Translations under genes and position numbers: made by a program
Source: Bacteroidales bacterium
GTDB taxonomy: Bacteria; Bacteroidota; Bacteroidia; Bacteroidales; VadinHA17
NCBI GenBank assembly: GCA_049294075.1
Contig: JBAQCK010000138.1
Coordinates: 38,361-102,360, forward strand
Length of the DNA: 64,000 nucleotides
Direction of reading: 5' to 3'
In this document: positions 2,772-59,871 of the stretch, piece after piece
Layout: each line of letters opens with the position of its first letter
Position numbering within the stretch: the stretch's first letter is position 1
Notes under the pieces: generated by a model
What the model was told of the DNA's origin: nothing
Databases searched by the model: none
What the model saw: only the letters and a program-made list of their open reading frames with translations

Positions 2772-2782
2772 TCTGCTGTATT

Positions 2783-3943
2783 ATGGAAAACAAAGTTTTA
2801 AATAAAGTAGGGCTGATATTCGAGAATGTTGATCCGAAGGAGGTTCTTACGAAGGCTTTCAATATGTCGAAAGATGAGGTGATTCAGCAGGTTCTTGATT
2901 CAGGGCTTAAAGGACGCGGCGGAGCAGGATTTCCCACTGGTCTCAAGTGGAAGTTTACTGCTGCCGAAAAAGATCCCGAGAAATATATAGTATGCAACGC
3001 CGATGAGGGAGAACCGGGGACTTTCAAGGACAGGGAGATACTCGACCGGGTTGCCTACAAGGTTTATGGAGGTATGGCGATAGCTGGCAGGACCATAGGA
3101 GCGAAGGAAGGATACGTTTATCTGAGGGGAGAGTACAAGTTCCTTCTCCCGAAGCTCATGAAGGAACTTGATGAATTCCATAAGATGATTGATGAGATAG
3201 GCTACGACTTCAGGATTCATTACCGGCTCGGAAGCGGTGCATATATATGCGGTGAGGAGAGTGCGCTGTTTGAATCGATAGAGGGTTTCAGGGGTGAACC
3301 CAGGAACAAGCCTCCTTATCCCACGACATCAGGTGTCTTTTACAAACCCACTTCCATTAATAATGTGGAAACCCTGGTAACCGTGATGATGATCATCAAA
3401 GACGGAGCCGAATCATATTTCAAGCTGGGAACCACGGATTCAAGGGGGTCAAAGGTCTTCTCAATATCAGGTGACACTCCAACCCCGGGCATTTTTGAAC
3501 TTGAACTGGGAATGTCTGTCCAGCAATTCGTGGATGAGTTCGGCGATGGTGACACAAAAGCCGTGCAGGTCGGAGGGGCTTCGGGTTTCTGTGTCCCGAG
3601 GAAGAAGTTTACTGAGACGATCATCGGCTTTGAGGGAGTTCCCACCGGCGGATCGATGAAGCTTTTCAACAGCTCCAGGTCGATGTACAATGTTCTTCAT
3701 AATTACCTTGATTTCTTTACTGAGGAGTCGTGCGGACAGTGTACTCCATGCAGGGTCGGCTGTCAGCAGCTGCTCAAGGGCGTTGAGAAGGTGAAAAAGG
3801 GAGAAGCAAAATCAACATATCTGCATGAACTCGTGAAGCTGGCCGACACCATGAAGATCGCTTCAAAATGCGGGCTTGGCCAGTCGGTCGGAAATGCATT
3901 CCGTACCATCGTTGAAAACTTCAGGGAAGAGATCATCTATTAA
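2783..3943 (+). CDS. hydB: [FeFe]-hydrogenase beta subunit, minimal NuoF-like flavoprotein
   Basis: GRGGAGFPTGLKW, CNADEGEPGTFKDR and YICGEESAL motifs. The single [4Fe-4S] motif is ESCGQCTPCR...KCGLGQ. At 386 aa there are no flanking ferredoxin or 2Fe-2S domains. Confidence 0.85.
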   Translation: MENKVLNKVGLIFENVDPKEVLTKAFNMSKDEVIQQVLDSGLKGRGGAGFPTGLKWKFTAAEKDPEKYIVCNADEGEPGTFKDREILDRVAYKVYGGMAIAGRTIGAKEGYVYLRGEYKFLLPKLMKELDEFHKMIDEIGYDFRIHYRLGSGAYICGEESALFESIEGFRGEPRNKPPYPTTSGVFYKPTSINNVETLVTVMMIIKDGAESYFKLGTTDSRGSKVFSISGDTPTPGIFELELGMSVQQFVDEFGDGDTKAVQVGGASGFCVPRKKFTETIIGFEGVPTGGSMKLFNSSRSMYNVLHNYLDFFTEESCGQCTPCRVGCQQLLKGVEKVKKGEAKSTYLHELVKLADTMKIASKCGLGQSVGNAFRTIVENFREEIIY

Positions 3944-3966
3944 TTCACTTTGAAAATCAGAAAAAT

Positions 3967-16900: not shown

Positions 16901-17371
16901 GTAAGGGACAGGAGTGGTGCCGAAATAATAAGGTTTATCTATGAAGATTCCGCGCCCTGGCCTGATGGTGCCGACGGAGACGGCTTTTCAATGGCCTCGG
17001 CAGCTGTCAATCCTGCCGGTGATCCGGGTGATCCTTCATACTGGACTCTTTCGGTTGAGAAGGACGGTAATCCATTTGCTGACAACGTTATGACCCCGGA
17101 TGTTCCGATTGATCCGGCTCCGGATGGATCACTTCTTGTATATCCGAATCCGACTACCGGAATTGTGACGGTTCATCTGTTTACCGATGAAGTACTTGAA
17201 GAAATGGATCTGGAAATACACTCAGCAGCCGGTAAACTGATGAAAAGACTTGAAATAGGAAATCCGGGGCTAATTGATCTTAAATCTGAAGGACTTCCGG
17301 CAGGATTCTATATCTTAGGGGTCAAAACAGCAGATTATTCAATTAAAACTGCAATCATACTGACAAAATAA
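13955..17371 (+). CDS. CotH kinase-family protein with lamin-tail domain and T9SS C-terminal sorting domain
   Basis: CotH core (YVNAKGHGLGWERECSFEL...LRIRGGYSRDDAFPKHAFRLFF). Two xYYTLDGSxP modules. LTD-like segment (ITELNYHP...EFIEFKNTG). C-terminal LLVYPNPTTGIVTV...TAIILTK. The start is either TTG 13955 or ATG 13976. Confidence 0.8.
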   Translation: MKISKSLMPGKEKYCSLLLLFILFALIESPLNAQIDFSYQSDYYFLKGKDAVSLPATWKDPGFDCTSWNWGKAPFRYGNGAGGTELTDMQNSFTTLFLRSEFDCQNKDLLKEIVIAADFDDGFIIWINGSEALRTNSPSAPSYNSVAPANHESGTGEYFTLDATEVDLVNGTNYIAIQGFNVSLNSTDFYLDFEIHAEISLPQLTDTLGLDFSVKSGFYDSPFSLSVSSPDPALEITYTLDGSNPQNSPTSFVVPNPALILIDPESTEGRPAAPSVTVRASASRTGMKPAMSSTRTYIFPEKVRTQKWPGGNWPATSINGQIIDLEMDPEVVEDPLYSPRLTGSLLGIPSVSIVTDNRNLFDPSSGIYVNAKGHGLGWERECSFELIYPDGREGFSINAGLRIRGGYSRDDAFPKHAFRLFFREKYGYDKLRYPLFGDEGVDVFDKIDLRAEQNYAWSNGQSNNSMVREVFSRDTQRDMGQPYTRSRYYHLYLNGMYWGLFQSQERSEARYGQSYFGGSEDDYDVIKVNTENGYLVEATDGTLDSWRVLYNMCTKGFTSNAEYFSIEGKDAWGKPVIGGEVKIDLDNLIDFMSVIFYTGNFDSPTAVFMQNKKANNFYAIDDRNDKSAGFKFFIHDAEHSLFDEAHSPGTGLFEDRVNIGTRTDALRMEVSDLTRFHPQWIHFRLSDNPEYRIRFADRAWRHFSDTGVFAPDRVLDRLEKRISEADIAVVAESARWGDAIRSGAPYTKDNNWIPEINKIRNRFIPERTRIVINQLKQAGLYPLIKAPVISAENGIVSRDVMPIIGSVHVTIGNPNPAGTIYYTLDGSDPRKIGGGVNKGVAFSLDKVSMELNESTVIRARILSSGEWSAIVHANFIKQPEDYSGLGITELNYHPPDIINGYDTLSGKDLEFIEFKNTGNHSINLGGLEIDSAVHYKFPENCLLPPKQFFVIASKPSNFFTHYGMLPSGNYEGNLSNAGEEVLVRDRSGAEIIRFIYEDSAPWPDGADGDGFSMASAAVNPAGDPGDPSYWTLSVEKDGNPFADNVMTPDVPIDPAPDGSLLVYPNPTTGIVTVHLFTDEVLEEMDLEIHSAAGKLMKRLEIGNPGLIDLKSEGLPAGFYILGVKTADYSIKTAIILTK

Positions 17372-36150: not shown

Positions 36151-36582
36151 CTAATCGGCAGTGTAGTTAAGCCGGAGGTCAAGCTCGCGGTCGTAAACGT
36201 ACCAGCAGGCATCCTCGCACTGCGTCCTGGTAAATTTTGTCCTTGGAATTGCTGAGTCGACTGCTGTATAGGTTTTGCCATTTCTCTCATAACTGGCAGT
36301 CGCCGTGTATTTCTTATTTAGCCTGACATCTAACCTGTAGATGTCAGAGGGGGGATTTACCGTGTTCAGAAGCACCCCGTCCTCCAGTTCGCCCTCATAC
36401 ACATTAATTGTCGCAGCCGGATTGTTCTCCGAGAATTTGATAAGCAGATAGTCGCTTGCAGGCTCATTGGAAGTGCAATCGCCGCAATCGGCAATCCATC
36501 CCTGTTCCTCGCACGAGAACGCAGCGGCGAGAACCAGGAAAAGAAAGATACCAAGGCAATGTTTCGTGATTTTCGCTACCAT
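36151..36582 (-). CDS. hypothetical lipoprotein
   Basis: Signal peptide plus lipobox (AAAFSC). 143 aa. Confidence 0.6.
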   Translation of the reverse strand: MVAKITKHCLGIFLFLVLAAAFSCEEQGWIADCGDCTSNEPASDYLLIKFSENNPAATINVYEGELEDGVLLNTVNPPSDIYRLDVRLNKKYTATASYERNGKTYTAVDSAIPRTKFTRTQCEDACWYVYDRELDLRLNYTAD

Positions 36583-38015
36583 TCTATTGTCTTTTCATGT
36601 TTTTTGACCCGGCTCAGTCTGTAGCTGTAAGTGAAGCCCAGCCTGCCCCAGAGAGGACCAATTTTATAGAATTCGGTTTTCAGATATTCAATACCTGCAC
36701 TCACAGCCAGGTTTGACCTTTCGAACTTTATTCCTGCGGCCGGCATTATTCTTGCCTTACTTTCGGGCCGGGCAATCGTTCCATTGAAAGCGGGGCCGAA
36801 GTTATATCCTGCCGACAGGGAAGCAGAGGCCATAATGGTGAATCCCGAAGGTCTCTCCAGAAGTGTGAAGTCCTTGAATAGTCCTGCGTAAGCCAGGGAG
36901 CTTTTATCGAGATACTGGTAAAACTCATTGTCGCCGGTTTCCTTCATGACTCTTGTTCTGAAGGGTTTTGTATCAAATCCGGCCATGAATCCCGCATTGA
37001 GGAGCGGTTCTTTGAATGAAAGCATCAGTCCGGCCAGAAAATCCCTGTTGTTGGCCCTGGCATTGGCCGACAGGGAGATCACATCAATTCTTAATCCCGG
37101 TTTGCCCTTTATATTATATTTTTCAAGAAGTGAAGTGATATCCTTTCTTCCGAAAGCTGCTGCCACGGTATAGGGATTGACTCCTCCCTTTTCCGGATCA
37201 TTCCACAGGTCTCCTTTTTTTAGAAGAAGCTCTGCTGCCGGGATATGGTTCGACTGGATAGCCAGGGCCAGTGCATTGTAATTATAGATGTTCTTTTCAT
37301 ACAGGTCGACACCCTCCTTGAGCAGCAGGCTCATTATCGCGGTGTCACCTTTCTGGGCTGCTATAAGAAATGGGGTGAAGCCTTCCTGGTCCCTTGCTTC
37401 CAGATTGGCACCGTTTTGAAAGAGCAAATCGGTTACATCGGCATATCCCGAAAGGATAGAGGCCATCAGCGGGGTTGTTCCGTCATCTGACTTCAGGTTG
37501 CAGTCTGCATCATAATAAAGCAGGAGGTCAGTCATCAGCATATCACCGTTCACCGCGGCGTAATGTAACGGAGTGGCGCCGTGATTGTCAGGAAGATCAA
37601 TATCTGCCCCGCCCCTGATGAGAGTCTCTGCAATTTCAGTGTTCATATTTTTGACTGCAATCAGGAGAGCAGTCTCATGCCCGGCAGTTTTCTTATCTAT
37701 ATTTGGATTCCAGGCCAGCAATGCTTCCACCGCAGAATGCCTGTTATTTGCAACGGCAAAGATCAGGGGCGTTGCTCCCTCGTAAGTCTCCGCGTCTATT
37801 TCGGCTCCTTTTGAAAGAAGTCTGTTGACTTCGGTGTGGAGCCCCTTTGATGATGCAATCATGAGATTGTATTCAAGCGCGCCCTCGGTGTCCATCGGTA
37901 TGTAATCGAGAGTGTCAAGAATTGTAATAACCTGTCCTGATAATCTTTGCAGCGGGAAGGTCAGATTAGCGAGGATCAGCGTTATGGCAAATATGCTACT
38001 TCGTGTTAATAACAT
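36576..38015 (-). CDS. exported ankyrin-repeat protein with C-terminal beta-barrel-like domain
   Basis: Signal peptide. About 8 ANK units (G.TPL..A......V..LL..GA). The last ~170 aa show alternating-hydrophobic strands and end in ...GFTYSYRL...IEW. Confidence 0.7.
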   Translation of the reverse strand: MLLTRSSIFAITLILANLTFPLQRLSGQVITILDTLDYIPMDTEGALEYNLMIASSKGLHTEVNRLLSKGAEIDAETYEGATPLIFAVANNRHSAVEALLAWNPNIDKKTAGHETALLIAVKNMNTEIAETLIRGGADIDLPDNHGATPLHYAAVNGDMLMTDLLLYYDADCNLKSDDGTTPLMASILSGYADVTDLLFQNGANLEARDQEGFTPFLIAAQKGDTAIMSLLLKEGVDLYEKNIYNYNALALAIQSNHIPAAELLLKKGDLWNDPEKGGVNPYTVAAAFGRKDITSLLEKYNIKGKPGLRIDVISLSANARANNRDFLAGLMLSFKEPLLNAGFMAGFDTKPFRTRVMKETGDNEFYQYLDKSSLAYAGLFKDFTLLERPSGFTIMASASLSAGYNFGPAFNGTIARPESKARIMPAAGIKFERSNLAVSAGIEYLKTEFYKIGPLWGRLGFTYSYRLSRVKKHEKTIEW

Positions 38016-41975: not shown

Positions 41976-43589
41976 ATGCAGAAACAATTATTAATGGGTG
42001 ACGAGGCAATTGCGCTTGGAGCACTTGATGCCGGCCTGAGCGGCATGTACGCTTACCCCGGAACCCCCTCGACCGAAATAATGGAGTATATTCAGTCGTC
42101 GGAAGAGGCAGCCGGAAGAGGTGTACACAGGGAATGGTCGGCCAATGAGAAGACTGCCATGGAGGCAGCTTTGGGAATGTCGTATACGGGAAGAAGAGCC
42201 ATGGTAGCCATGAAGCATGTTGGTCTCAACGTGGCTGCCGACCCCTTTATCAATTCATCTGTGACCGGGATTAATGGCGGACTCGTGGTTGTATCAGCCG
42301 ACGATCCCTCGATGCATTCATCACAGAATGAACAGGATTCAAGATTCTACGGAAAATTTGCTTTTGTGCCGGTTTTTGAGCCTTCAAACCAACAGGAGGC
42401 CTACGATATGGTAAGCGATGCCTTTGACCTTTCTGAGAAATTCAGGATTCCCGTGCTGTTCAGGATAACTACGCGTCTTGCCCATTCACGTTCAGCGGTA
42501 AAGAGGAAAACTGCAATTCCTCAGAAGTCTTTTCAGCTTCCTTCCGATCCCCGCCAGTTTGTACTTCTTCCTGCCATAGCAAGGAAGAAGTACCATGCAC
42601 TGCTGGCCACTTACGAATCTCTGAAATATGATAACAGGCTTTCAAGATACAACGTGTTCAAGGATGGGAAGAACAGAAGAATGGGCGTAATAGCATGCGG
42701 CATAACATATAATTATCTTATGGAGAACTTTCCGGATAAGGGTCCGGGATTTCCCGTGCTGAAAATCACCACCTACCCGTTTCCGAAAGATATTATCAGT
42801 GATCTGACAAGCAGATGTGAGGAGGTTCTTGTTCTCGAGGAGGGGTACCCTATTATTGAGGAGGGTCTGAGAGGAATACTGGATAACAGCCTGTCGGTTT
42901 ACGGACGACTCGACGGTGCAATCCCGAGGGAAGGTGAACTGAATCCGTCGGTTGTGGCCAAAGCACTGGGGATCAAATCAGAGCCATTGTTCAAAGTCCC
43001 CGATGTTGTAAAAACCCGGCCGCCGTCATTTTGCAAGGGATGCGGGCATTCCGACACTTTCCTTGCTGTTATCGATGCCTTGAAACCGTCGGGCGGCAGG
43101 GGAGTATTCTCGGACATCGGATGTTATACACTGGCTGCACTGCCTCCATACAGCATCATAAACTCCTGTGTCGATATGGGAGCATCTGTTACCATGGCTG
43201 TAGGGGCCGCTGACGGGGGATTAAGACCCTCTGTTGCAGTGATAGGCGATTCAACCTTCACCCATTCGGGCATGACCGGGCTACTCGATGCAGTGATGAA
43301 AAACTCCCCGGTAACAGTAATCATATCGGATAACTCAGCCACGGCAATGACCGGCGGACAGAAATCCCATGCCACCGGACGGCTTGAAAAAATCTGCGAA
43401 GGACTTGGCGTTGACCCCAAACACATCAGGACGATAGTGCCGCTTAAGAAGAATCACGCGGAGAATGTGGAAGTCATGCAGGAAGAATTCGAATATCAGG
43501 GTGTCTCGGTGATAATTTCTGCAAGGGAATGCATCCAAACTGCCTCAAAGCGCAGGAAATCCAATAAAAGCAACGAGCAGGAATCATGA
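41976..43589 (+). CDS. iorA: indolepyruvate:ferredoxin oxidoreductase alpha subunit
   Basis: MQKQLLMGDEAIALGALDAG...YPGTPSTEI and a TPP-binding domain (FCKGCGH, GDSTFTHSG). Confidence 0.85.
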   Translation: MQKQLLMGDEAIALGALDAGLSGMYAYPGTPSTEIMEYIQSSEEAAGRGVHREWSANEKTAMEAALGMSYTGRRAMVAMKHVGLNVAADPFINSSVTGINGGLVVVSADDPSMHSSQNEQDSRFYGKFAFVPVFEPSNQQEAYDMVSDAFDLSEKFRIPVLFRITTRLAHSRSAVKRKTAIPQKSFQLPSDPRQFVLLPAIARKKYHALLATYESLKYDNRLSRYNVFKDGKNRRMGVIACGITYNYLMENFPDKGPGFPVLKITTYPFPKDIISDLTSRCEEVLVLEEGYPIIEEGLRGILDNSLSVYGRLDGAIPREGELNPSVVAKALGIKSEPLFKVPDVVKTRPPSFCKGCGHSDTFLAVIDALKPSGGRGVFSDIGCYTLAALPPYSIINSCVDMGASVTMAVGAADGGLRPSVAVIGDSTFTHSGMTGLLDAVMKNSPVTVIISDNSATAMTGGQKSHATGRLEKICEGLGVDPKHIRTIVPLKKNHAENVEVMQEEFEYQGVSVIISARECIQTASKRRKSNKSNEQES

Positions 43590-44152
43590 AGAGCGACATT
43601 ATACTATCAGGAGTAGGAGGGCAGGGGATATTGTCAATTGCGGCAATTATCGGCCTTGCCGCAATAGAAAATGATCTTTATCTCAAGCAGGCTGAAGTTC
43701 ATGGAATGAGCCAGAGGGGAGGAGATGTCCAGTCACACCTCAGGCTGTCATCAATGCCGGTTCATTCTGATCTGATTCCATATGGAAAAGCCGATCTGAT
43801 AATTTCAGTCGAACCAATGGAATCGCTCAGGTACCTGCCATGGCTTTCGGCATCCGGATGGCTGGTCACCAATTCAACACCATTCGTGAATATCGACGAC
43901 TATCCTCCTGTGGAAGATATCCTCAGCAGGATAAGGAAAGTGGGCAATCATAAAATTGTTGATGCTGACGAGATTGCACGACAGATAGGTTCGGCGCGTT
44001 CGGGTAATGTGGTGATCCTCGGCGCCGCCTCTAATTATCTTGATCTTCCCTGGGAAAGCCTCGAGAATGCTGTGATGAGATTATTTTCAAAGAAGAGTCC
44101 TGAACTGGCTGAGTTGAACGTGAAAGCCCTAAAGGCAGGACGAAACGCATGA
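43586..44152 (+). CDS. iorB: indolepyruvate:ferredoxin oxidoreductase beta subunit
   Basis: GVGGQGILS motif. 4-bp overlap with iorA. Confidence 0.85.
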   Translation: MKSDIILSGVGGQGILSIAAIIGLAAIENDLYLKQAEVHGMSQRGGDVQSHLRLSSMPVHSDLIPYGKADLIISVEPMESLRYLPWLSASGWLVTNSTPFVNIDDYPPVEDILSRIRKVGNHKIVDADEIARQIGSARSGNVVILGAASNYLDLPWESLENAVMRLFSKKSPELAELNVKALKAGRNA

Positions 44153-50956: not shown

Positions 50957-51964
50957 TCAGATCACCTCAACCTCGCGTTCGAGGTCGATGCCGAAAGTAT
51001 CAGCAACGGATTTCCTTACCTTTTCCGACAGGTCAAAAAGTTCCCTGCCTGTTGCGTTTCCATGATTGACAATAACCAGAGCCTGTTTTTCGTGGATGCC
51101 TGCATCCCCTATCCTTCTGCCCTTCCATCCGCACTGTTCGATAAGCCAGCCTGCCGGTATCTTGACTCCGCCTGACCGGTCCCTGAAAACTGGCATTTTA
51201 GGGAAATTCTTCTGAATATTTTTTAGGACTTCTTCGGATACAAACGGATTCTTGAAGAAGCTGCCTGCATTTCCAATCTGTTCGTGGTCCGGAAGCTTTG
51301 CCTGCCTTGTGCTTATTACAATTTTTCTGATATTGGCAAGTGATGTGGAGCCGAGCTTGCTCAACTCATCCTTGAGCGACCCGTATTCAAGGCATAGTTT
51401 GGGCCGGGTTGACAGTCTGAATAAAATTTTTGTTATCAGGTATTTGCCCTTAAGTTCGTGTTTGAAAACGCTGTCCCTGTATCCGAACTTGCATTCGCTG
51501 CCTGTGAATTCCCTGATTGTCCCGTCTTCGAGAGAGATGGCTCTTACTTTTTCAATCACATCCTTTACTTCTGCCCCGTAGGCGCCAATGTTCTGAACTG
51601 CAACAGCGCCAACACGGCCGGGTATGAGGGAAAGGTTTTCCAACCCTCCCAGACCGTTTTTTACGGTCGATTCCACCAGTTTGTCCCACAATACTCCGGC
51701 TCCGGCAGAAATGATGATATCGGCCCCCTTTTTCCCTTCCATGGTAATGCCTTCCATTTCGGGATGGATAATTGTGCCGTGAAAATCATCCGTAAAAAGG
51801 ATATTGCTGCCACCGCCCAGAACCAGGTAGTTTTGTTCTGTTCCCCTGTTTTTCCGGAAGAAGTGAACGGCATTATCCTCGAGTTTGAAGGCAGCCAGGT
51901 GATCGGCCCGTACATTAATGCCGAATGTATTAAACTTCTTTAGTGAAATCTTTTCGTAGATCAT
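50957..51964 (-). CDS. murB: UDP-N-acetylenolpyruvoylglucosamine reductase
   Basis: FAD-binding LVLGGGSNILF and a C-terminal MurB domain (SAGWLIEQCGWKG). Confidence 0.9.
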   Translation of the reverse strand: MIYEKISLKKFNTFGINVRADHLAAFKLEDNAVHFFRKNRGTEQNYLVLGGGSNILFTDDFHGTIIHPEMEGITMEGKKGADIIISAGAGVLWDKLVESTVKNGLGGLENLSLIPGRVGAVAVQNIGAYGAEVKDVIEKVRAISLEDGTIREFTGSECKFGYRDSVFKHELKGKYLITKILFRLSTRPKLCLEYGSLKDELSKLGSTSLANIRKIVISTRQAKLPDHEQIGNAGSFFKNPFVSEEVLKNIQKNFPKMPVFRDRSGGVKIPAGWLIEQCGWKGRRIGDAGIHEKQALVIVNHGNATGRELFDLSEKVRKSVADTFGIDLEREVEVI

Positions 51965-52095
51965 GTCAGGTTAGTGTGGCGTAAAATTAGCAAAACGAAG
52001 CTAAATCCTTTGAAAGGAGGGGTTGGTTTTTATCATTAAAGTAGTATTTTCGCTGTAATCAATCCATTATCAAACGCCGACAACCTGAATCTGAT

Positions 52096-52565
52096 ATGAA
52101 AAGCAATCGTCGGGATTTTTTGAAGCATGCAACAGTGGCTGGCGCGGGAGCCTTTGCAGGAGGACTCCTTTCGCCCCCTTTGCAAATCTTAGTTATCGCG
52201 GAAACATGAACACTTCGCTGGTCAGAACAAACCCTGGAAAGACTATTCTGATACAGCACGACGTGTCTTCGGTTCGTCCCTGTTCCCGGCTCCATGTGAT
52301 TAGGGGAACATCAGGCGCGGCAAGCAAGTATCCAGGGCCCGAACGGATTGCGATGGGGCATGACTGGTTCAATGAGGAATAGATGAAGGATGTCACTGAG
52401 AAGTTCACTCCTGAAATAGTGAGAAGAATTGGCGAGATGGCAAAAAAGGCCGGAGGCCACGGAGGAATCGATTTCATCATGGACTGTGGAGGCTGATCGA
52501 TTGCCTTAGGAAAGGTCTGCCGCTCGATCAGGATGTTTACGACGGCGCATTGTGGAGTTCCGTTA
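52096..52565 (+). pseudogene. relic of a TAT-signal Gfo/Idh/MocA glycosidase-like (GH109-type) gene
   Basis: An intact TAT signal (MKSNRRDFLKHATVAGAGAFAG) runs directly into C-terminal-domain fragments in three frames: GKTILIQHDV...; AKKAGGHGGIDFIMD; WRLIDCLRKGLPLDQDVYDGALWSSV. The Rossmann domain and the extreme C-terminus are missing. Confidence 0.7.
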
Positions 52566-52571
52566 TTTTTT

Positions 52572-52579
52572 TACTTTTG
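52572..52579 (+). promoter_or_regulatory. candidate -7 box (TACTTTTG) for the hyf-like operon
   Basis: Perfect TAnnTTTG match 33 nt upstream of the ATG at 52613. Confidence 0.4.
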
Positions 52580-52612
52580 CGGGCACAATTAAAGATAGGA
52601 AATTATCCTGCA

Positions 52613-54604
52613 ATGAATATCGCGCTTTTTTTTACCGTTCTGATTCTCTCTTTTGCGCTTTTCCTGGTCCCTAAAATCCTGAAGCACAGTACCGCACTGT
52701 TTGTACTTGCAGCAGGCATTCTGGTAACCACAGGCTGGAGCTTTGAAGTGTTTGCGGGAAGAACCGGTGAACTAAGGCTGGAAACCGTTGTTCCCCTTAT
52801 TGGAAAGTCAGTCACTCTCATAATTGACAGGCTGTCGGCGTTTTTCATACTTGTGGTTAATATTACCCTTCTTGTCGGATTGATATACGCAAAAGGATAT
52901 CTGAAGCCATATTACCAGATCAGGAACTCCCTGCGCTTTTCAATACATTACTTTTCGTACCTGTGGCTTTATTTCTCAATGATCCTGGTGTTGATCACGC
53001 GCGACGGATTGTCCTTTCTGATAGTGTGGGAAATAATGGCGCTTTCGTCATTCATGCTGGTCATTTTCGATGCAGAGGACACCTCGATCATGAAAACCGG
53101 TATCAGCTATCTTATCCAGATGCATGTTGGCATGTTCTTCCTGATGTTTGCCTTTCTCATTCTTGACCGTGAAACGGGGGAAATGAGTTTTGATGCCCTG
53201 GGCGGCTACTTCAGGGATCATTCGAACCTGCTCCTTTTCATTCTGTTCTTCATGGGATTTGGCATCAAAGCCGGATTCATTCCGCTGCACACATGGCTTC
53301 CACAGGCACATCCGGCTGCCCCTTCGCACGTTTCGGGAGTGATGTCGGGAGTGATGATAAAGATGGGAATATATGGTATTATGAGAGTACTGCTCTATGT
53401 CAGTCAGGATCTTCTGCAGATCGGAATCCTGATCCTGATCGTATCGCTCATATCGGGGCTGCTTGGAGTGATGATGGCGATAGTGCAGCATGACCTGAAA
53501 AGGTTGCTGGCTTACCACAGCATCGAAAACATAGGGATAATTGGCATCGGCATCGGGCTGGGAGTAATCGGACTCGCTACCGGGAACAATGCGCTGAGTA
53601 TCCTGGGATTCAGCGGCGGATTGCTGCATGTGCTTAACCATTCCCTGTTTAAATCGCTCCTTTTTTTCAGTGCGGGATCCGTATACACCTCCACTCACAC
53701 CAGGAATATTGAAAAGATGGGAGGGCTGATGAAGCGAATGCCCTATACATCCGTGCTTTTTCTTATAGGGTCGCTTGCTATCTGCGGTCTGCCTCCCTTT
53801 AACGGATTCATTTCCGAATACCTTATTTACCTGGGTATGTTCAGAGACCTGCCGTCGGCGGGGATGCACGAGTCAATACTTGTGCTTGGATCAATTGTAG
53901 GCCTGTCACTCATCGGAGGCCTTGCCGTTTTCTGTTTTACAAAGGCATTCGGGATAGCTTTTCTCGGGGAACCACGCTCACAGCATTCAACATCAGCCAT
54001 TGAAGTTGAGAAGGTGATGATTTTCCCGCAATTTGTTTCAGTTGCCATGATAATACTCATCGGAGTGGCTTCGCCATGGTTTGTCAGGCCCGTTTTTGAA
54101 ATCGTCTCATCGGGATTCGGAATTGAAGGGATGCCCGCAGTAGCAAATTCAACATTACCGGGACTTTCAAAGATTAGTATCATTTCAGGAGTCTTCATTA
54201 TGCTTGTGCTTGCTTTGTCACTGTACAGGCAATTCCATCTTAAGTCGGTCAAAGTGAGCCGGGGTCCGACATGGGGTTGCGGCTACACTGCCCCGGATCC
54301 TAAACAGCAATACACTTCAACGTCTTTTGCATACAACTACAACCATCTGGCAAAACCGGTTATCGGGACAAAAAAAATGATGCCGGAGATAATGGAGGAA
54401 GAGATTTTCCCGGTGGAAAGAAGCTTCAGTTCGTTTAGTGACGATGTTTTCCGGAAAGTGTTAATTGACAAGCCAGCCGGTATGGTCTCTTCGCTTCTCA
54501 AGAAGATAGCCGTGATGCAGACCGGGAAGGTTCAGCACTACGTACTATACGCGTTTATTTTCATGCTCTTTGTGCTTTTGCTCACCTGGCTCAATATTAT
54601 CTGA
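52613..54604 (+). CDS. HyfB/NuoL-like antiporter-type membrane subunit
   Basis: About 16 TM segments and Mrp/NuoL family motifs (GFIPLHTWLPQAHPAAPSHVSG). Start set at MNIALFF rather than the upstream TTG. Confidence 0.85.
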   Translation: MNIALFFTVLILSFALFLVPKILKHSTALFVLAAGILVTTGWSFEVFAGRTGELRLETVVPLIGKSVTLIIDRLSAFFILVVNITLLVGLIYAKGYLKPYYQIRNSLRFSIHYFSYLWLYFSMILVLITRDGLSFLIVWEIMALSSFMLVIFDAEDTSIMKTGISYLIQMHVGMFFLMFAFLILDRETGEMSFDALGGYFRDHSNLLLFILFFMGFGIKAGFIPLHTWLPQAHPAAPSHVSGVMSGVMIKMGIYGIMRVLLYVSQDLLQIGILILIVSLISGLLGVMMAIVQHDLKRLLAYHSIENIGIIGIGIGLGVIGLATGNNALSILGFSGGLLHVLNHSLFKSLLFFSAGSVYTSTHTRNIEKMGGLMKRMPYTSVLFLIGSLAICGLPPFNGFISEYLIYLGMFRDLPSAGMHESILVLGSIVGLSLIGGLAVFCFTKAFGIAFLGEPRSQHSTSAIEVEKVMIFPQFVSVAMIILIGVASPWFVRPVFEIVSSGFGIEGMPAVANSTLPGLSKISIISGVFIMLVLALSLYRQFHLKSVKVSRGPTWGCGYTAPDPKQQYTSTSFAYNYNHLAKPVIGTKKMMPEIMEEEIFPVERSFSSFSDDVFRKVLIDKPAGMVSSLLKKIAVMQTGKVQHYVLYAFIFMLFVLLLTWLNII

Positions 54605-54605
54605 T

Positions 54606-55526
54606 ATGGCAGGACTGATAATGATATTGATATCGGCCATGTTCTTCCCGGGAATGATACTCCGGACCAGGAGCATCGCATCAGGGCGCAAGGGACCCGG
54701 TATCCTTCAGCCTTTGAGAGATGCCGGAGTCCTGGTAAGGAAAGGGAGCGTATTCAGCACGACGACGGGTATTATTTTCCAGGTTGCACCTGTGGTTTCG
54801 CTTTCTTCAGTCATCTGCGCGATACTGGTGGTGCCTTTTGGACATCAGGAGGCGCTTATTCACTTCGAAGGGGACTTTGTATTTTTTGCGTATATCCTGG
54901 CCCTGGGACGTTTTTTCATGATAATTGCCGCTCTCGACACAGGTAGCAGCTTTGAAGGAATGGGAGCAAGCCGCGAAGCCTTTTTTTCAATGCTTATCGA
55001 ACCCGCATTCTTTATCCTTATGGCTACCTTCTCGATGTTTACAGGACTCGTTTCCTTTTCGGATATCTTCAGCCATTTCTTCATTACCGGTAATCATTAT
55101 GTACTTATATTCAGCATTATAGGTTTTTATTTATTCATACAGACCGCTTTGATCGAAAACAGCCGGCTTCCTGTCGATGATCCCAAAACCCATCTGGAGC
55201 TGACAATGATTCATGAAGTGATGATCCTCGATTACAGCGGCTTCGACAAGGCGCTTATCCATATTACTACATGGCTCAAATTTGCTGCATACGGATCGCT
55301 CATGTATAATGTTATAGTGCCGGCGGGATGGAATATATTCCTTCAGATTGCACTCTTCATTGCCGTTCAGGCTTTGTTTGCGATTATTGTAGGATTTCTC
55401 GAATCATTCAGGGCAAGAAACAAGATGAACAAGAATCCCAAGTTCATATTAACGATTTCGGCAATTGCCCTTCTTGCCTTTGTGGTTATACTGATATTGA
55501 ACCTGAATATGAATAGTAATTTTTAG
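54606..55526 (+). CDS. HyfC/HycD/NuoH-like membrane subunit
   Basis: RTRSIASGRKGPGILQPLRD N-terminal loop and 8 TM segments. Confidence 0.8.
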   Translation: MAGLIMILISAMFFPGMILRTRSIASGRKGPGILQPLRDAGVLVRKGSVFSTTTGIIFQVAPVVSLSSVICAILVVPFGHQEALIHFEGDFVFFAYILALGRFFMIIAALDTGSSFEGMGASREAFFSMLIEPAFFILMATFSMFTGLVSFSDIFSHFFITGNHYVLIFSIIGFYLFIQTALIENSRLPVDDPKTHLELTMIHEVMILDYSGFDKALIHITTWLKFAAYGSLMYNVIVPAGWNIFLQIALFIAVQALFAIIVGFLESFRARNKMNKNPKFILTISAIALLAFVVILILNLNMNSNF

Positions 55527-55532
55527 CAAGCG

Positions 55533-56147
55533 ATGGAGATTTACCTTATAGTGTTATTTGCGATAACACTCGTATATTTTGCTTCAGCCGAACGACTGGT
55601 GACCTACATACGGCTCATCGGCATTCAGGGTCTGCTTTTGTGCGGGATCGCCATATTTGAACTTACCGAGGTGAACACCGTAAACCTGATATTCATTATT
55701 GCAGAGACTATCATAATAAAGGCAACAGTGATACCTTACCTTCTTAAACGCATCACAACGGAATCAGGTGTAACCAAAGTTCACAGGCAGGCAATGCCCG
55801 GATTTTATCTTATCATACTGTCGGTTACAGCCCTGCTGGCAAGCCTTATCCTTTCTTATTCGATGAAGAACCCGTATGTGAACGTGATTTACATGACGAT
55901 TGCACTGTTCAGCCTTTTTACAGGGCTACTGATGATTGTAACCCACAGGCTGATCATTTCCCATCTTACCGGCTTTCTTATAATTGAGAATGCTGTTTTC
56001 GTTTTTTCGATTGCTGTTGGAAATGAAATGCCGATGCTTATAAATATCGGAATTCTCCTTGATATTTTTGTCGGGGTTCTTATTCTTGGCTTTTTCGGAT
56101 TGCGCCTTAAACCCCACACCAACGAACTAACCCTGCTAAAGGACTGA
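55533..56147 (+). CDS. HyfE-like small membrane subunit
   Basis: 204 aa, about 6 TM segments, positioned between the NuoH-like and NuoM/N-like genes as in hyf operons. Confidence 0.65.
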   Translation: MEIYLIVLFAITLVYFASAERLVTYIRLIGIQGLLLCGIAIFELTEVNTVNLIFIIAETIIIKATVIPYLLKRITTESGVTKVHRQAMPGFYLIILSVTALLASLILSYSMKNPYVNVIYMTIALFSLFTGLLMIVTHRLIISHLTGFLIIENAVFVFSIAVGNEMPMLINIGILLDIFVGVLILGFFGLRLKPHTNELTLLKD

Positions 56148-56148
56148 C

Positions 56149-57573
56149 ATGCTGCTGTTGTTTTTTATAATATCTGTGCTTATATGTCTGTCGATGCTGC
56201 TCTTCAGAAGCAAAAACCTTACAAAAATCCTGATGGTGGGCTTCGCAATGATGCATATAGTGCTGAGCATCTACTCATTTACCAGACTCGGCAATACCGA
56301 GCTCCGATTTTTCACCTATACAGGGATAGGAGTTCTTCTTCTTTCGGTGCTTTCAATTCTGGCGGTTCCCGTTGTTTACCATGGATTTATATATACGGCC
56401 GGCGATGATACAAGGAAATTCAACATCTATCATGCTTCTCTGGTTGCCCTTATGACCTTTATGACCGGAGCTTACCTGGCAAACGGAATGACAGTGCTTT
56501 GGGCATTTGTGGAAGCAACCACTCTGGCTGTGGCATTATTGATTTATCACGACCGGACTCCGGCAGCTCTTGAAGCAACCTGGAAATATGTGTTTATCTG
56601 CTCAGCCGGAATTGCCCTTGCATACCTGGGGATTCTGTTCCTGGGATTTATCTACGGACGCGAGGATGCGGCCAGCCTTTCATTCTCATCACTTTCCACA
56701 ATAATCAACCAGGCAAATCCGATGTATCTAAGGATTGCCTTCCTGTTTGTTCTGACAGGCTTCAGCACGAAGATGGGTCTTTTCCCCATGCACACCGTTA
56801 CTATCGATGCCCATTCCGTTGCCCCTCCTCCAATTTCCGCCTTGATCTCCACCACTCTTATGAATGTGGGCTTTCTGGCGATTTTCAGGGTTTATTCCCT
56901 GTTCTCGTCTTCATCGGTTTTTCCGTTTATGAACAATGTGCTGATCTTAGCCGGACTGCTTTCAATCCTCGTCGCTTCAGGCTACATGCTTAAGGCCAAG
57001 CATCTGAAACGTATGCTGGCATATTCAAGCCTTGAGAATATGGGGTTGGTTGCAATAGCGATCGGAGTGGGAGGCATAGGGTACTATGCCGGAATATTGC
57101 TGCTTTTATTGCATTCTCTGGCTAAATCGAGCCTGTTTTTCCAGATGGGTCAGCTGTCGAGGGTGCTTCATACCTTTAAGCTGGACAATTGCGGCAGATA
57201 TATGGAACTGTATCCCGCCGGGGCGATGGTATTGCTCCTGGGAATGATCTGTATACTTGCGCTTCCGCCGTCGGGACTTTTTATTACTGAATTCCTGATC
57301 TTCAAGGGAATGGTTAGCAATGGCCAATGGGTTGTGATGATTACGGCTGTGGCGCTTTTATGCTTTGTGGTTTATGCAATGAGCACACGCTTCATGCATA
57401 TTTTATTCTCAAATCCGCGCGGTGATGCCGGACTTACGGAACCGGGTAAAGTAAACGGGATTGAGACGGTCAGCCAGTTTGTCCTTCTGGGTGTGGTGGT
57501 GCTTATGTGCTTTTATCAGCCCTCCTTCCTGTCGGAAATGATCTTTCAAAGCATCAGCCTATTGCCAAAATGA
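56149..57573 (+). CDS. HyfF/NuoM-N-like antiporter-type membrane subunit
   Basis: About 13 TM segments, with FSTKMGLFPMHTV and AYSSLENMG motifs. Confidence 0.8.
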   Translation: MLLLFFIISVLICLSMLLFRSKNLTKILMVGFAMMHIVLSIYSFTRLGNTELRFFTYTGIGVLLLSVLSILAVPVVYHGFIYTAGDDTRKFNIYHASLVALMTFMTGAYLANGMTVLWAFVEATTLAVALLIYHDRTPAALEATWKYVFICSAGIALAYLGILFLGFIYGREDAASLSFSSLSTIINQANPMYLRIAFLFVLTGFSTKMGLFPMHTVTIDAHSVAPPPISALISTTLMNVGFLAIFRVYSLFSSSSVFPFMNNVLILAGLLSILVASGYMLKAKHLKRMLAYSSLENMGLVAIAIGVGGIGYYAGILLLLLHSLAKSSLFFQMGQLSRVLHTFKLDNCGRYMELYPAGAMVLLLGMICILALPPSGLFITEFLIFKGMVSNGQWVVMITAVALLCFVVYAMSTRFMHILFSNPRGDAGLTEPGKVNGIETVSQFVLLGVVVLMCFYQPSFLSEMIFQSISLLPK

Positions 57574-57580
57574 GTAAATA

Positions 57581-59098
57581 ATGAACGAACTTTTCATAGA
57601 GATATCATCCAATCCGTTTACTGTCAGCATTGATATGATCCCGGTGCTGGAATATGAACTTTTCTGTGATCAGGCTGCCCTGATGCTTAAGGATGAATCG
57701 CAGCATTGTGTTGCCTATTATGCCGTGGAGACTCAAGGAAGCCTGAAGCTTATCTGCTGCATTGCAGATGACAGGGATCACAGTTTCAGGTTATTTTCTT
57801 CCATGCTTTCTGGCTGCAAAAGCACGGTAAGGTCACTGTCGAAGGAAGTCCCGCAGCTTCATGTATATGAACGCGAGATTCACGAGAATTACGGTGTTGT
57901 TTTTGAGGGGCATCCCTGGCTCAAGCCTGTGAGGTATCCTCACAACCGGGCATCAATGGCATCGGTTATGGACAACTATCCTTTTTACAGGATAGAAGGA
58001 GAGGAGCTTCATGAGGTTGGTGTCGGACCTGTACATGCCGGCGTGATAGAACCCGGACATTTCAGGTTCATCTGCAACGGCGAAAAGGTTCTGCATCTTG
58101 AAATACAGCTTGGTTACCAGCACAGGGGAGTGGAGCGTCTGCTGGCAGAAACCGGAAGCGGGATCAGGCGTTGTGTCCTGTGCGATAACATCGTGGGCGA
58201 TACCTCTGTCGGTTACGCACTTACATACGCCCGGGTAATTGAATCTCTGGCAGGTATCCAGCCCTCCAGGGCAATTCAGATTGAGCGTAACATCGGCCTG
58301 GAACTGGAAAGGATTGCTGTCCATATCGGCGATACGGCGGCATTGTGCGGTGATGTGGCATACCAGCTTGGTCAGGTTGTATGTGAGGCTCTGCGGACCG
58401 AAATAATAAACACCACACAGCTCTGGTGCGGCAACAGGTTTGGAAAAGGACTTGTTCGTCCGGGAGGCACAAATTATAAAATGACTTCCGAAGTTACTGA
58501 CAGGATACTTATTGTGCTTAAGGATGTTGGAGAAAGGTTTGCCACTATTTCCGACAGGATATATTCCCTTCAGAGTGTTCTGGCCCGGTTCGAGGATATT
58601 GGCCAGGTAACCCGGCAGCAGGCGCTTTTAACTGGCGCAGTAGGGATGGCAGCAAGGGCATGCGGAATCAGACGTGATATAAGATGGTCGCATCCTGACC
58701 AGTATTACCAGGATTGTTCTTTTGAGCCGGTGGTTCTCGAAACCGGGGATGTTCTTGCACGCGGGCTGCTCAGGGTTAAGGAAGTAAGTGAATCCATAAA
58801 CATTATCTCCCGACTTATAGCTGACCGGCAGAATCAGCAGGACGAGCTCTCCCTTCCTGATTACAATTGCAGTCTCAGGGCTGACAGTTTCGCACTGTCA
58901 CTTACAGAAGGCTGGAGAGGTGAGATATGCCATTCCGCAATCACTGACGGGAGCGGAAATATTGTTCATTACAAGGTAAAGGACCCGTCGTTCCATAACT
59001 GGATGGCTCTTGCTCTGGCGGTAAGAAACGAGGAGATTTCCGATTTTCCGGTCTGTAACAAGAGCTTTAACCTTAGTTACTGCGGGAATGATCTTTAG
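57581..59098 (+). CDS. fused NuoC-NuoD / HycE-like 'large subunit' lacking the canonical Ni-Fe cysteine motifs
   Basis: NuoC-like YEREIHENYGVVFEGHPWLKP. NuoD/HycE-like GPVHAGVIEPGHFRF and LGYQHRGVERL. The expected RxCGxCxxxH position reads NIVGDTSVGY, and the C-terminus reads NLSYCGNDL-stop instead of DPCxxCxxR. Confidence 0.8.
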   Translation: MNELFIEISSNPFTVSIDMIPVLEYELFCDQAALMLKDESQHCVAYYAVETQGSLKLICCIADDRDHSFRLFSSMLSGCKSTVRSLSKEVPQLHVYEREIHENYGVVFEGHPWLKPVRYPHNRASMASVMDNYPFYRIEGEELHEVGVGPVHAGVIEPGHFRFICNGEKVLHLEIQLGYQHRGVERLLAETGSGIRRCVLCDNIVGDTSVGYALTYARVIESLAGIQPSRAIQIERNIGLELERIAVHIGDTAALCGDVAYQLGQVVCEALRTEIINTTQLWCGNRFGKGLVRPGGTNYKMTSEVTDRILIVLKDVGERFATISDRIYSLQSVLARFEDIGQVTRQQALLTGAVGMAARACGIRRDIRWSHPDQYYQDCSFEPVVLETGDVLARGLLRVKEVSESINIISRLIADRQNQQDELSLPDYNCSLRADSFALSLTEGWRGEICHSAITDGSGNIVHYKVKDPSFHNWMALALAVRNEEISDFPVCNKSFNLSYCGNDL

Positions 59099-59115
59099 AT
59101 GCATATAACTGAGAG

Positions 59116-59871
59116 ATGTACAGGGAAATTAAAATATTAAAGCAGCATGGGATCCAGTATGTAAGGGACCTCCGGAATCAGCCGGTCTCTGACCTTTTCC
59201 GGGGAAGGCCGGTGATTTCAAGGGATATTACGGCCGCTGAAATCGAAAAGGTCAGTTCCCTTTGTCCGGCCGGCGCTATCGATAAGGTAAGCGGGTCAAT
59301 CGATCTGGGAAAATGTGTTTTTTGCAGAGAATGTGAATTCTGTCTGAAAGAAAAGATCCGTTTTACAAATGATTACCGGATAGCAGCCAGCAGGAGGGAG
59401 GATCTTGTAATCCGGCCGGGAACGGAGGCTCTGCTCAGGCTTGACGGGGAAGTAATAAGAAAGGAGATAAGGAAGATTTACAAGCGTTCGCTTAAGCTGA
59501 GGCAGGTATCTGCCGGTGGGGATAATTCGTGTGAGATGGAGCTCAATGCAACGGGCAATGTGAACTTCGACCTGGGGCGGTATGGGATTGAGTTTACAGC
59601 ATCGCCGCGTCATGCTGACGGGATAGTGATTACCGGACCTGTTTCAGCAAACATGGCTGCAGCACTACGACTAACATATGAAGCAGTGCCCGATCCGAAG
59701 GTGATCATCCTGGTTGGAACCGATGCGATCAGCGGAGGCATGTATGCCGGCTCACCTGCTGTTGAAAGGAGTTTTATCGAAGAACATCACATTGATCTTT
59801 ATGTTCCGGGCAACCCGGCCCATCCTTTGACTTTCATTAACGGGATTCTCGATCTTCTTGGAAAAAAATGA
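59116..59871 (+). CDS. NuoB/HycG-like 'small subunit' with N-terminal ferredoxin remnant and degenerate cluster ligands
   Basis: N-terminus has LCPAGAI...CVFCRECEFC. The NuoB core is RHADGIVITGP. The cluster motifs read GGDNSCEME, GTDAISGG and VPGNPAHP, so only 1 of 4 Cys is kept. Confidence 0.75.
   Translation: MYREIKILKQHGIQYVRDLRNQPVSDLFRGRPVISRDITAAEIEKVSSLCPAGAIDKVSGSIDLGKCVFCRECEFCLKEKIRFTNDYRIAASRREDLVIRPGTEALLRLDGEVIRKEIRKIYKRSLKLRQVSAGGDNSCEMELNATGNVNFDLGRYGIEFTASPRHADGIVITGPVSANMAAALRLTYEAVPDPKVIILVGTDAISGGMYAGSPAVERSFIEEHHIDLYVPGNPAHPLTFINGILDLLGKK

Follow-up and report, generated by a model that had tools for sequence, protein, structure and literature searches.

A six-gene complex-I-like operon of Bacteroidales, very probably a cofactor-depleted member of the Ehr class, that retains one of three canonical iron-sulfur sites

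The window analysed here is a stretch of 64,000 nucleotides from a Bacteroidales bacterium of the VadinHA17 lineage (assembly GCA_049294075.1, contig JBAQCK010000138.1, positions 38,361 to 102,360 of the forward strand). Between positions 52613 and 59871 it carries six open reading frames (ORFs) on the + strand, co-directional and separated by gaps of 1, 6, 1, 7 and 17 bp, whose products resemble subunits of group 4 [NiFe] hydrogenases and of complex I (Table 1). An earlier note, made from the sequence alone, had described six closely spaced genes at this place that follow the E. coli order hyfB-C-E-F-G-(H)I; positions and spacing are as it gave them, and both the order and the families are confirmed by matches in Pfam, in NCBIfam and to solved structures. 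As set out below, the operon is very probably a cofactor-depleted representative of the energy-converting-hydrogenase-related (Ehr) class. Counts given for the close family refer to the best 80 loci among the relatives of the large subunit.

Table 1. Features of the operon, of its ligand columns and of the surrounding window (positions are those of the window)
Feature	Position	Strand	Basis or remark
HyfB/HycC/NuoL-like antiporter-type subunit, 663 aa	52613..54604	+	Pfam PF00361, 4.9e-56
NuoH/HycD-like subunit, 306 aa	54606..55526	+	Pfam PF00146, 2.6e-30
HyfE-like small membrane subunit, 204 aa	55533..56147	+	NCBIfam hydrogenase-4 membrane subunit, 5e-8, below cut-off
HyfF/NuoN-like antiporter-type subunit, 474 aa	56149..57573	+	Pfam PF00361, 3.6e-41; NCBIfam hydrogenase-4 subunit F
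Fused NuoC-NuoD/HycE-like large subunit, 505 aa, without Ni-Fe ligands	57581..59098	+	Pfam PF00329 + PF00346
Small subunit, 251 aa: NuoI/HycF-like half-ferredoxin and NuoB/HycG-like domain, fused	59116..59871	+	Pfam PF01058 (residues 137-246)
V205-G-D-T208 replacing N-terminal CGxC Ni-Fe motif	58193..58204	+	Alignment to MbhL (CGIC), HycE
S499-Y-C-G502 replacing C-terminal CxxC Ni-Fe motif	59075..59086	+	Alignment to true hydrogenases
C50-P...C67xxC70xxC73, predicted four-Cys site for one [4Fe-4S] cluster	59263..59334	+	Sequence conservation
D136-N-S-C139 replacing CxxC (two N2-type cluster ligands)	59521..59532	+	Alignments to MbhJ, HycG, Ehr
D203 replacing third N2 Cys	59722..59724	+	Asp in 79/80 loci; E or S deeper
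N233 replacing fourth N2 Cys (GCPP to GNPA)	59812..59814	+	Asn in 79/79 loci; A or S deeper
Candidate Bacteroidetes-type -7 promoter box TACTTTTG	52572..52579	+	Consensus match; 34 bp before first start codon
TAT-signal Gfo/Idh/MocA (GH109-like) pseudogene	52066-52573	+	Internal deletion, in-frame stop, frameshift
IorA/IorB-type indolepyruvate (2-oxoacid):ferredoxin oxidoreductase	41976-44152	+	8.5 kb upstream of operon
HydC (NuoE-like)-HydB (NuoF-like)-HydA, HydABC-type [FeFe]-hydrogenase	2304-5748	+	About 47 kb from operon

All six proteins score below the curated cut-offs of their NCBIfam models, and hence we regard them as relatives, not members, of the enzymes after which the models are named. 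For the HyfB-like protein the top model is hydrogenase-4 subunit B (548 bits against a cut-off of 667) and the best solved match is HycC (7z0s_C, 2.5e-69); for the HyfF-like protein the best solved match is MbsH (6u8y_H), alongside MbhH. The HyfE-like protein has no match in Pfam; its gene is found at the same operon position in 72 loci, and its orthologue at locus L087 weakly matches NuoK (PF00420). Compared with solved structures, the large subunit is closest to MbhL (1.9e-34) and HycE (1e-29), and its AlphaFold model resembles HycE over the full length, with a template-modelling score of 0.78 in Foldseek. The small subunit matches MbhJ and HycG among solved sequences, and NuoB and HycF in Foldseek. 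Both AlphaFold monomers fold well overall, with predicted local distance difference test (pLDDT) values of 80 for the large and 79 for the small subunit.

The start of the NuoH-like gene is placed at ATG 54606 because 70 orthologues agree on it; the TTG at 54570 that the ORF lister had chosen is upstream read-through. Ahead of the first gene lies a match to the Bacteroidetes-type -7 promoter consensus, a motif found 32 times across the window against a chance expectation of 38. Its placement is like that of other matches 25-50 nt upstream of iorA, mltG and ggt, and the position of this candidate box supports ATG 52613 over TTG 52550 as the predicted start of the HyfB-like gene. The TTG at 52550 is a spurious start of the first ORF and belongs to the tail of the upstream Gfo/Idh/MocA pseudogene. 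A riboswitch or other known RNA upstream was considered as a clue to function and dropped, given that the whole window has no match at Rfam gathering scores; the interval 51900-52700 gave matches at chance level only.

The ligand columns of the Ni-Fe site were located in the large subunit by pairwise HMMER alignment to solved MbhL and HycE and by a family alignment with the nearest true hydrogenases. Nearest relatives were sought with a full HMMER search on 1.8 billion cluster representatives. Five true hydrogenases occur among the best 150 matches, and in these the two columns read ERxCGxCxxSH and NKSF[NE]LCYSC[TL]D[RL]. The same columns of the window's protein read DNIVGDTSVGY and NKSFNLSYCGNDL. 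Both Ni-Fe cysteine pairs are gone, as the earlier note had held from a manual alignment, and there is no CxxC pair in the entire sequence of the subunit. The lone cysteine of the C-terminal motif, C501, sits one position out of register. It is present in 81/81 sequences of the close family, and it was rejected as a relocated Ni-Fe ligand because the position is C, S or A across the wider Ehr. D207, within the replaced N-terminal motif, is invariant in both sets of relatives compared (119 and 81 sequences). Six cysteines of the large subunit (C165, C283, C501, C492, C256 and C450) are invariant or nearly so in the close family (n=81), and none of them is a Ni-Fe ligand.

The quinone-binding tyrosine of NuoD (DRxDY motif) is likewise missing from the large subunit, its column being Gly206 in an alignment to Aquifex NuoCD, and where complex I has its loop histidine the protein carries a hydrogenase-like loop, EPGHFRF. 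Many polar residues of the hydrogenase pocket are retained and invariant (E157, R182, H248, D251, R446 and H451). Two of these, R182 and H248, align with an arginine and a histidine of NuoD, which we take to be the pair adjacent to cluster N2.

Database entries label such proteins as 'Ni,Fe-hydrogenase III large/small subunit' or 'NADH-quinone oxidoreductase subunit C', and on the strength of these names one could suppose that the operon encodes a genuine [NiFe] group 4 hydrogenase or complex I after all, the ligand loss being an artefact of a wrong alignment register. We consider this next to impossible. It is contradicted by independent HMMER alignments to solved MbhL, HycE, MbhJ and HycG, and by the true hydrogenases and the Ehr proteins that retain the proximal, N2-type cluster, which have cysteines in precisely those columns that read V/T, S/G and D/D/N in the window. 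The lack of any CxxC pair in the large subunit, the glycine in the quinone tyrosine column and the NCBIfam scores, all below the curated cut-offs, speak against it as well. Evidently, the three-way alignment of the ligand columns refutes a mis-registered hydrogenase or complex I, and the manual register of the earlier note proved correct: neither the canonical pairs nor the full set of four NuoB cysteines is present. Given that the ligand columns are substituted and that the quinone tyrosine is replaced by glycine, the protein set is, as judged from its sequences, neither a [NiFe] hydrogenase nor a complex I.

In the small subunit a remnant of NuoI/HycF is joined to NuoB, a fusion that the earlier note had missed. 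In the N-terminal part of the protein the NCBIfam models of HycF and NuoI span residues 19-100, HycF (7z0s_F) and NuoI align to residues 57-100, and the NuoB-like match covers residues 135-248. The columns of the proximal cluster were established by pairwise HMMER alignment to solved MbhJ and HycG and by alignment with N2-retaining Ehr small subunits. Three of the four ligand positions are substituted (D136, D203 and N233) and the remaining one is C139, in accordance with the earlier count of a single cysteine out of four. D136 is found in 100% of N2-less members; C139 is found in 84-90%, with A or V instead at the deeper loci L087, L088 and L093. The substituting residues D136, D203 and N233 were considered as a new conserved metal site, and this was rejected as a general feature, since deeper N2-less members have E or S and A or S at the last two positions. 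Thus the replacing residues, except D136, vary in the deep branches, and no conserved new metal site is present.

From these losses the earlier note had gone on to state that the redox subunits retain hardly any metal ligands. This stands for the Ni-Fe and N2 sites; it is overstated otherwise, because an invariant four-cysteine [4Fe-4S] site had been overlooked. C50, C67, C70 and C73 of the small subunit are invariant in 80/80 loci and in 121/121 database proteins, and the same holds in the deeper N2-less loci L087, L088, L092 and L093. C76, the fourth cysteine of the second ferredoxin motif, occurs in 7/80 loci only, and the first CxxCxxC ferredoxin motif, which N2-retaining Ehr keep, is gone. 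In two-cluster ferredoxins each cluster takes three of its ligands from the cysteines of one motif and the fourth, the CP cysteine, from the other motif, and by this general rule C50, C67, C70 and C73 make up one complete predicted [4Fe-4S] site. The ligand pattern indicates that one of the three canonical clusters survives and that it is presumably the middle one of the chain. In complex I the clusters follow the order N5-N6a-N6b-N2-quinone (PMC10068793).

Ehr complexes are related to group 4 (4f) hydrogenases, lack the CxxC motifs and have no assigned function (PMC6349859, PMC10284858, PMC7304191, PMC5037454). They have been described for Margulisbacteria, Saganbacteria, Nitrospira and bacteria of the Candidate Phyla Radiation (PMC6349859, PMC10284858, PMC7304191), and are routinely filtered out by HydDB-based classification. 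The Ehr of Margulisbacteria consists of a NuoC-NuoD fusion, a NuoI-NuoB fusion, HyfB, HyfF, NuoH and HyfE, and the same architecture is given for Firmicutes and hyperthermophiles, citing Marreiros et al. 2013 (PMC6349859 Supplementary Note 4). Since this description is of exactly the architecture found here, the class and its gene set are already known, and the proposal of the earlier note that the locus is an undescribed system has to be abandoned. Its remark that the operon resembles Ehr, in contrast, is borne out by the shared signature, architecture and tree grouping. Our literature search found no paper linking Ehr and Bacteroidota.

The assignment to Ehr draws on several observations. 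The large subunit is a homologue of group 4 hydrogenases and NuoD without Ni-Fe cysteines, and the gene set combines the NuoC-D and NuoI-B fusions with HyfB-, HyfE-, HyfF- and NuoH-like subunits. The Ehr signature GD[ST] ... NKSFNLSY[CSA]GxDL is present in 105/113 of the nearest full-length 50%-identity cluster representatives. Furthermore, in a neighbour-joining tree, which is a crude distance tree without labelled HydDB references, the five true hydrogenases form the outgroup to the Ehr-type large subunits. The operon does depart from the class in one respect: of the three-cluster relay seen in other Ehr operons, it has the ligands for one cluster out of three.

Twelve operons or loci from more distant representatives were compared with the window, and the ligand states of the small subunit given here cover 11 lineages plus the 80 close loci, out of about 600 genomes. 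Six of the Ehr operons lie outside the clade of the window, including those of Sulfurospirillum and of a metagenome-assembled genome (MAG) of Ca. Magnetoovum, and have large subunits 29-42% identical to the window's. The four N2 cysteines are kept in 6/6 of these operons and both ferredoxin motifs in 5/6, both motifs being incomplete in L085. Within the clade, 5/5 lineages (the 80 close loci counting as one) lack N2 and have a single cluster site; large-subunit identity to the window's is 53% for L087, 47% for L088 (Rikenellaceae), 42% for L093 and 37% for L092. When the neighbour-joining tree is rooted on the true hydrogenases, the N2-less members fall into a single clade, which lies within the N2-retaining Ehr. 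Given this nesting, the loss of N2 appears to be derived and essentially confined to Bacteroidales. What seems to be new is that the loss of N2 and of the first-motif cluster is specific to a Bacteroidales-centred subclade, and not general to Ehr.

Few changes set the N2-less clade apart: mainly the three cysteine replacements in the small subunit, and E235, T252, Q280, W282 and K289 in the large subunit. Of the latter, E235, T252 and Q280 place polar residues where mostly hydrophobic ones are found, and T252 lies, by alignment, one helical turn after H248. It should also be noted that reduced forms of the operon exist. Locus L092 (6578-10207) holds a three-gene version made up of the HyfF-like, large and N2-less small subunits, with no HyfB-, NuoH- or HyfE-like genes upstream. 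At L091 (9001-10503), in a Bacteroidales MAG, an orphan Ehr-type NuoC-D large subunit (P0248, on 10 contigs) stands between mutS and a purple-acid-phosphatase-like gene, and no small-subunit or membrane-subunit genes lie within 9 kb of it.

More than 8000 relatives of the large subunit are present in databases, and at least 575 GTDB species genomes carry one. The best 80 relatives are all from uncultured Bacteroidales or Rikenellaceae MAGs (from fens, sediments, groundwater, biofilms and digesters), and relatives labelled with an organism are MAGs in every case. The gene order B-C-E-F-G-I is the same in 80/80 loci, wherever the contig extends. At L072 (4012-8556) the operon is typical except for an insertion of about 4.5 kb that separates the HyfE-like from the HyfF-like gene. 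The ratio of non-synonymous to synonymous substitution (dN/dS), computed against two relatives, lies between 0.04 and 0.21 for all six genes, both peripheral subunits included, with 0.04 for the NuoH-like gene and 0.10-0.21 for the large subunit.

Conservation within the membrane arm is equally marked at the residue level, notably for the charged residues by which the proton paths of antiporter-like subunits are recognised. In the HyfB-like protein E140, K219, H226, H233, K250, H343, K347 and E402 are invariant among 65/65 relatives, and in the HyfF-like protein E122, K208, H215, H322, K326 and E381 are invariant among 74/74. The acidic loop of the NuoH-like protein (E196...D226) and 24 charged residues are conserved to at least 95%, and 30-35% of all positions in the four membrane subunits reach the same level. 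The position in transmembrane helix 8 of the HyfF-like protein is Asn239, in common with other Ehr operons; a lysine-to-asparagine change here was considered as a clade-specific defect and rejected, since N or T is found also in N2-retaining Ehr. Substitution pattern and conserved order both indicate that all six genes are under purifying selection. The operon is a selected one, as the earlier note had suggested, and its statement that all six ORFs are full length with intact antiporter-type motifs holds, the charged residues being invariant among relatives.

These data also bear on whether the operon could be a decaying relic of a hydrogenase or an Ehr, without present function. We judge this most improbable. 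Cofactor ligands were indeed lost stepwise, and the three-gene remnant at L092 and the orphan large subunit at L091 occur in related lineages, all of which a relic would explain. However, the selection data contradict it: six full-length ORFs with low dN/dS, membrane subunits conserved at about a third of their positions with invariant proton-path residues, an order identical in all 80 loci, and relatives in several hundred species genomes are not what decay would leave. Moreover, the adjoining Gfo/Idh/MocA gene has decayed in the same window while the operon has stayed intact.

This Gfo/Idh/MocA oxidoreductase, which carries a twin-arginine translocation (TAT) signal, is the sole recurrent same-strand neighbour of the operon, lying 82 bp upstream of it, and recurs in 30 loci. 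The pseudogene of the window keeps only residues 39-76 and 359-492 of the 548-residue orthologue, and hence the oxidoreductase is not an obligatory partner. The conserved neighbours in general (MltG, MurB, Gfo/Idh/MocA, gamma-glutamyltranspeptidase and PiT/PhoU) were considered as partners and rejected, as they reflect shared synteny among related Bacteroidales. No hyp, hycI, formate dehydrogenase, carbon monoxide dehydrogenase, cytochrome or separate ferredoxin genes lie beside the operon, be it in the window or at the 80 loci, and the earlier note's observation to this effect can thus be extended beyond the window. Hyp maturation genes or a maturation endopeptidase are absent from the whole 64-kb window and from within 5-10 kb of the 80 related loci. 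Overall, no donor, acceptor or maturation genes are linked to the operon in the 80 close loci, and none were seen beside ten more distant ones.

Two other redox systems are encoded in the window, namely a HydABC-type [FeFe]-hydrogenase and an IorAB-type oxidoreductase, the latter showing no synteny with the operon in related loci. Their presence points to a ferredoxin-linked metabolism and to a real hydrogenase of another class. In one case, at L093 (1799-4256), a gene for a SulP-family anion transporter comes next after that of the N2-less small subunit, in the same orientation, and a gene for a P-II signalling protein is close by. Elsewhere in the window, a 479-residue protein consisting mostly of ankyrin repeats, which are unusual in bacteria, is encoded at 36576-38015 (- strand), and an ankyrin-repeat gene lies near the Ehr operon of L083 too. 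At 13955-17371 (+ strand) a 1138-residue secreted protein is encoded that combines CotH kinase-like, chitobiase C-terminal and lamin-tail domains and bears a C-terminal sorting signal for type IX secretion.

What, then, might the complex do? To our knowledge, in every characterised member of the superfamily electrons enter the NuoB/NuoD pocket via the proximal cluster. In the present operon the surviving cluster has lost its neighbours in the chain on either side, which makes through-transfer to the old pocket unlikely; as far as the sequences tell, electrons probably no longer reach the former catalytic pocket at the NuoB/NuoD interface. Without an electron path to the pocket, the complex is most likely no longer a redox-driven pump. 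The reading that we favour, albeit tentatively and by analogy, is that of an ion translocator that would no longer be redox-driven and would be gated by a redox-sensing or structural peripheral arm. Cations or protons would be translocated, by Mrp-like antiport, through the HyfB- and HyfF-like subunits and the NuoH-like channel; the role of gate or plug would fall to the conserved peripheral arm; and the [4Fe-4S] cluster that is left may be a structural or a redox/oxygen-sensing element. The earlier note had proposed a selected, non-hydrogenase and possibly non-redox function. Selection can be upheld in this proposal, and so can the view that the complex is no [NiFe] hydrogenase, whereas a redox or sensing role is left open by the [4Fe-4S] site.

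Several considerations weigh against an ion translocator gated in this way. About 750 residues of the peripheral arm are under purifying selection and many polar residues of the pocket are invariant, which is much for a mere plug, and Mrp antiporters function without any peripheral arm. The cysteines of the surviving cluster have remained invariant over deep divergence in which two other clusters were lost, and this argues for a working redox role. It should also be noted that the monomer AlphaFold models are unreliable at the interfaces, with pLDDT below 50 at residues 130-179 and 485-505 of the large and 127-165 of the small subunit, and that the surviving cluster is placed at the N6b position only presumptively, from the Thermus structure and the general ligand-swap rule of ferredoxins.

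If the surviving cluster does carry electrons, a ferredoxin or flavodoxin would reduce the exposed [4Fe-4S] cluster, and the cluster would reduce an acceptor at a remodelled site nearby and so drive the membrane arm; ferredoxin reduced by pyruvate:ferredoxin oxidoreductase or by IorAB could be the donor. This is the main rival to the ion-translocator reading, and we hold it to be unlikely, though it deserves serious consideration. The best argument for it is the invariance of the four cluster cysteines across all N2-less members. Conservation extends to the pocket residues and the NuoH-like acidic loop, the clade-specific polar residues E235, T252, Q280, W282 and K289 suggest an interface that was remodelled and not abandoned, and a ferredoxin-linked metabolism is at hand in the [FeFe]-hydrogenase and IorAB of the window. 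Against this, the canonical entry cluster for ferredoxin is also lost, acceptor-related genes are linked in none of the 80 close loci and were seen at none of ten distant ones, and the replacements of the N2 ligands vary in the deep branches, leaving no conserved new cofactor site. We know of no complex-I-type enzyme that couples without the proximal cluster, and direct transfer to the pocket from the cluster that precedes N2 would, in complex I, have to span too great a distance.

A further alternative, which we regard as improbable, is that the former Ni-Fe/N2 pocket has been turned to non-redox chemistry, or to the binding or conversion of a ligand such as a small anion or a metal-substrate complex at its new carboxylate-rich site, coupled to ion flow; either the ion gradient would drive the chemistry or the chemistry would drive the ion flow. 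An aspartate in place of the first N2 cysteine in all N2-less members fits this idea, as do the acidic or polar residues that occupy the remaining ligand positions, those at E235, T252 and Q280 of the large subunit, and the invariant D207 at the former Ni-Fe cysteine site; apart from D136, however, the replacing residues are not conserved throughout the clade, and Pfam and NCBIfam give no known hydrolase, carbonic anhydrase or binding-fold signature. The SulP-family transporter directly downstream at L093, with its nearby P-II gene, can be cited in favour of it as well, but this link is found at one locus. As to precedent, CupA of cyanobacteria and the DabAB CO2-hydration system perform non-redox chemistry on complex-I-type membrane modules. 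These CO2-hydration systems sit on antiporter-like subunits, however, and not at the NuoB/NuoD pocket.

Returning to the ion-translocator reading, its more general form is one that we put forward with slightly less assurance still: anaerobic Bacteroidales may harbour a widespread machine of the complex-I/hydrogenase type without through-electron transfer, in which an arm of the NuoB/NuoC-D/NuoI type with one isolated cluster could gate an Mrp-like translocator in response to redox state, pH or a ligand, or could form its non-redox catalytic head. For complex I, Mbh and formate hydrogenlyase (FHL) alike, the central question is how the membrane arm is driven by chemistry at the NuoB/NuoD interface. 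The present clade keeps the coupling apparatus (the NuoH acidic loop, the antiporter Lys/Glu residues and the pocket Arg/His) without the terminal cluster and the catalytic metal, and thereby makes it possible to ask what the scaffold is capable of when redox input is absent. If this general reading is true, the clade would provide the first natural case in which the coupling apparatus of complex I functions with the terminal cluster missing. Loss of that cluster from a still-selected complex-I-type machine would be unprecedented, and the machine is widely distributed among anaerobic Bacteroidales. The stepwise loss, first of Ni-Fe, then of two clusters and then, in some lineages, of membrane genes, documents the repurposing or dismantling of an energy-converting module. 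There is also a practical consequence. Given that the genes are mislabelled and occur in so many species genomes, Bacteroidales of fens, sediments, digesters and guts may be credited in error, when their metabolism is reconstructed, with H2 production, formate hydrogenlyase or an additional complex I.

Among known systems, the described Ehr complexes are the closest, with the same six-subunit set, no Ni-Fe cysteines, the signature GD[ST] ... NKSFNLSY.GxDL and no assigned function, all as in the window; Ehr have been reported near group 4f hydrogenases. The proposed formate dehydrogenase-Ehr of Margulisbacteria differs in having FdhA or NuoEF genes nearby, which the window operon lacks. With E. 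coli hydrogenase-4 (HyfABCDEFGHI) and FHL (HycBCDEFG, 7z0s) the operon shares the B-C-E-F-G-(H)I order; HycE of FHL is the best fold match to the large subunit, and HycF and HycG each correspond to one half of the small subunit. Unlike these enzymes, the window has neither Ni-Fe ligands nor an N2-type cluster, only half of HycF, and HyfH and HyfI in fused form, and it is without HyfA/HycB, HyfD, FdhF, hyp and hycI.

In Pyrococcus, MbhL and MbhJ of Mbh (6cfw) are the best solved sequence matches to the large and small subunits, and the sulfane reductase Mbs/Mbx (6u8y) demonstrates that the same scaffold works without a Ni-Fe site. Mbh and Mbs nevertheless retain all three [4Fe-4S] clusters and use ferredoxin, and they comprise 13-14 subunits, including a full Mrp module, as opposed to six genes in the window operon. 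Complex I (NuoA-N) shares homologous NuoB, C, D, H, I and L/M/N modules, and its Glu, Lys and Glu/Lys positions in transmembrane helices 5, 7 and 12 are conserved in the window's proteins; in contrast, the window lacks N2, the quinone tyrosine and NuoA, J, K, E, F and G, and its NuoI-like part has one cluster. Finally, Mrp antiporters have MrpB, C, E, F and G and neither a NuoH-like subunit nor a peripheral arm, unlike the window operon. They nonetheless have in common with it two subunits of the MrpA/MrpD type with intact charged residues, and they need no obligatory redox input, which is proposed here as a functional analogy and not as membership.

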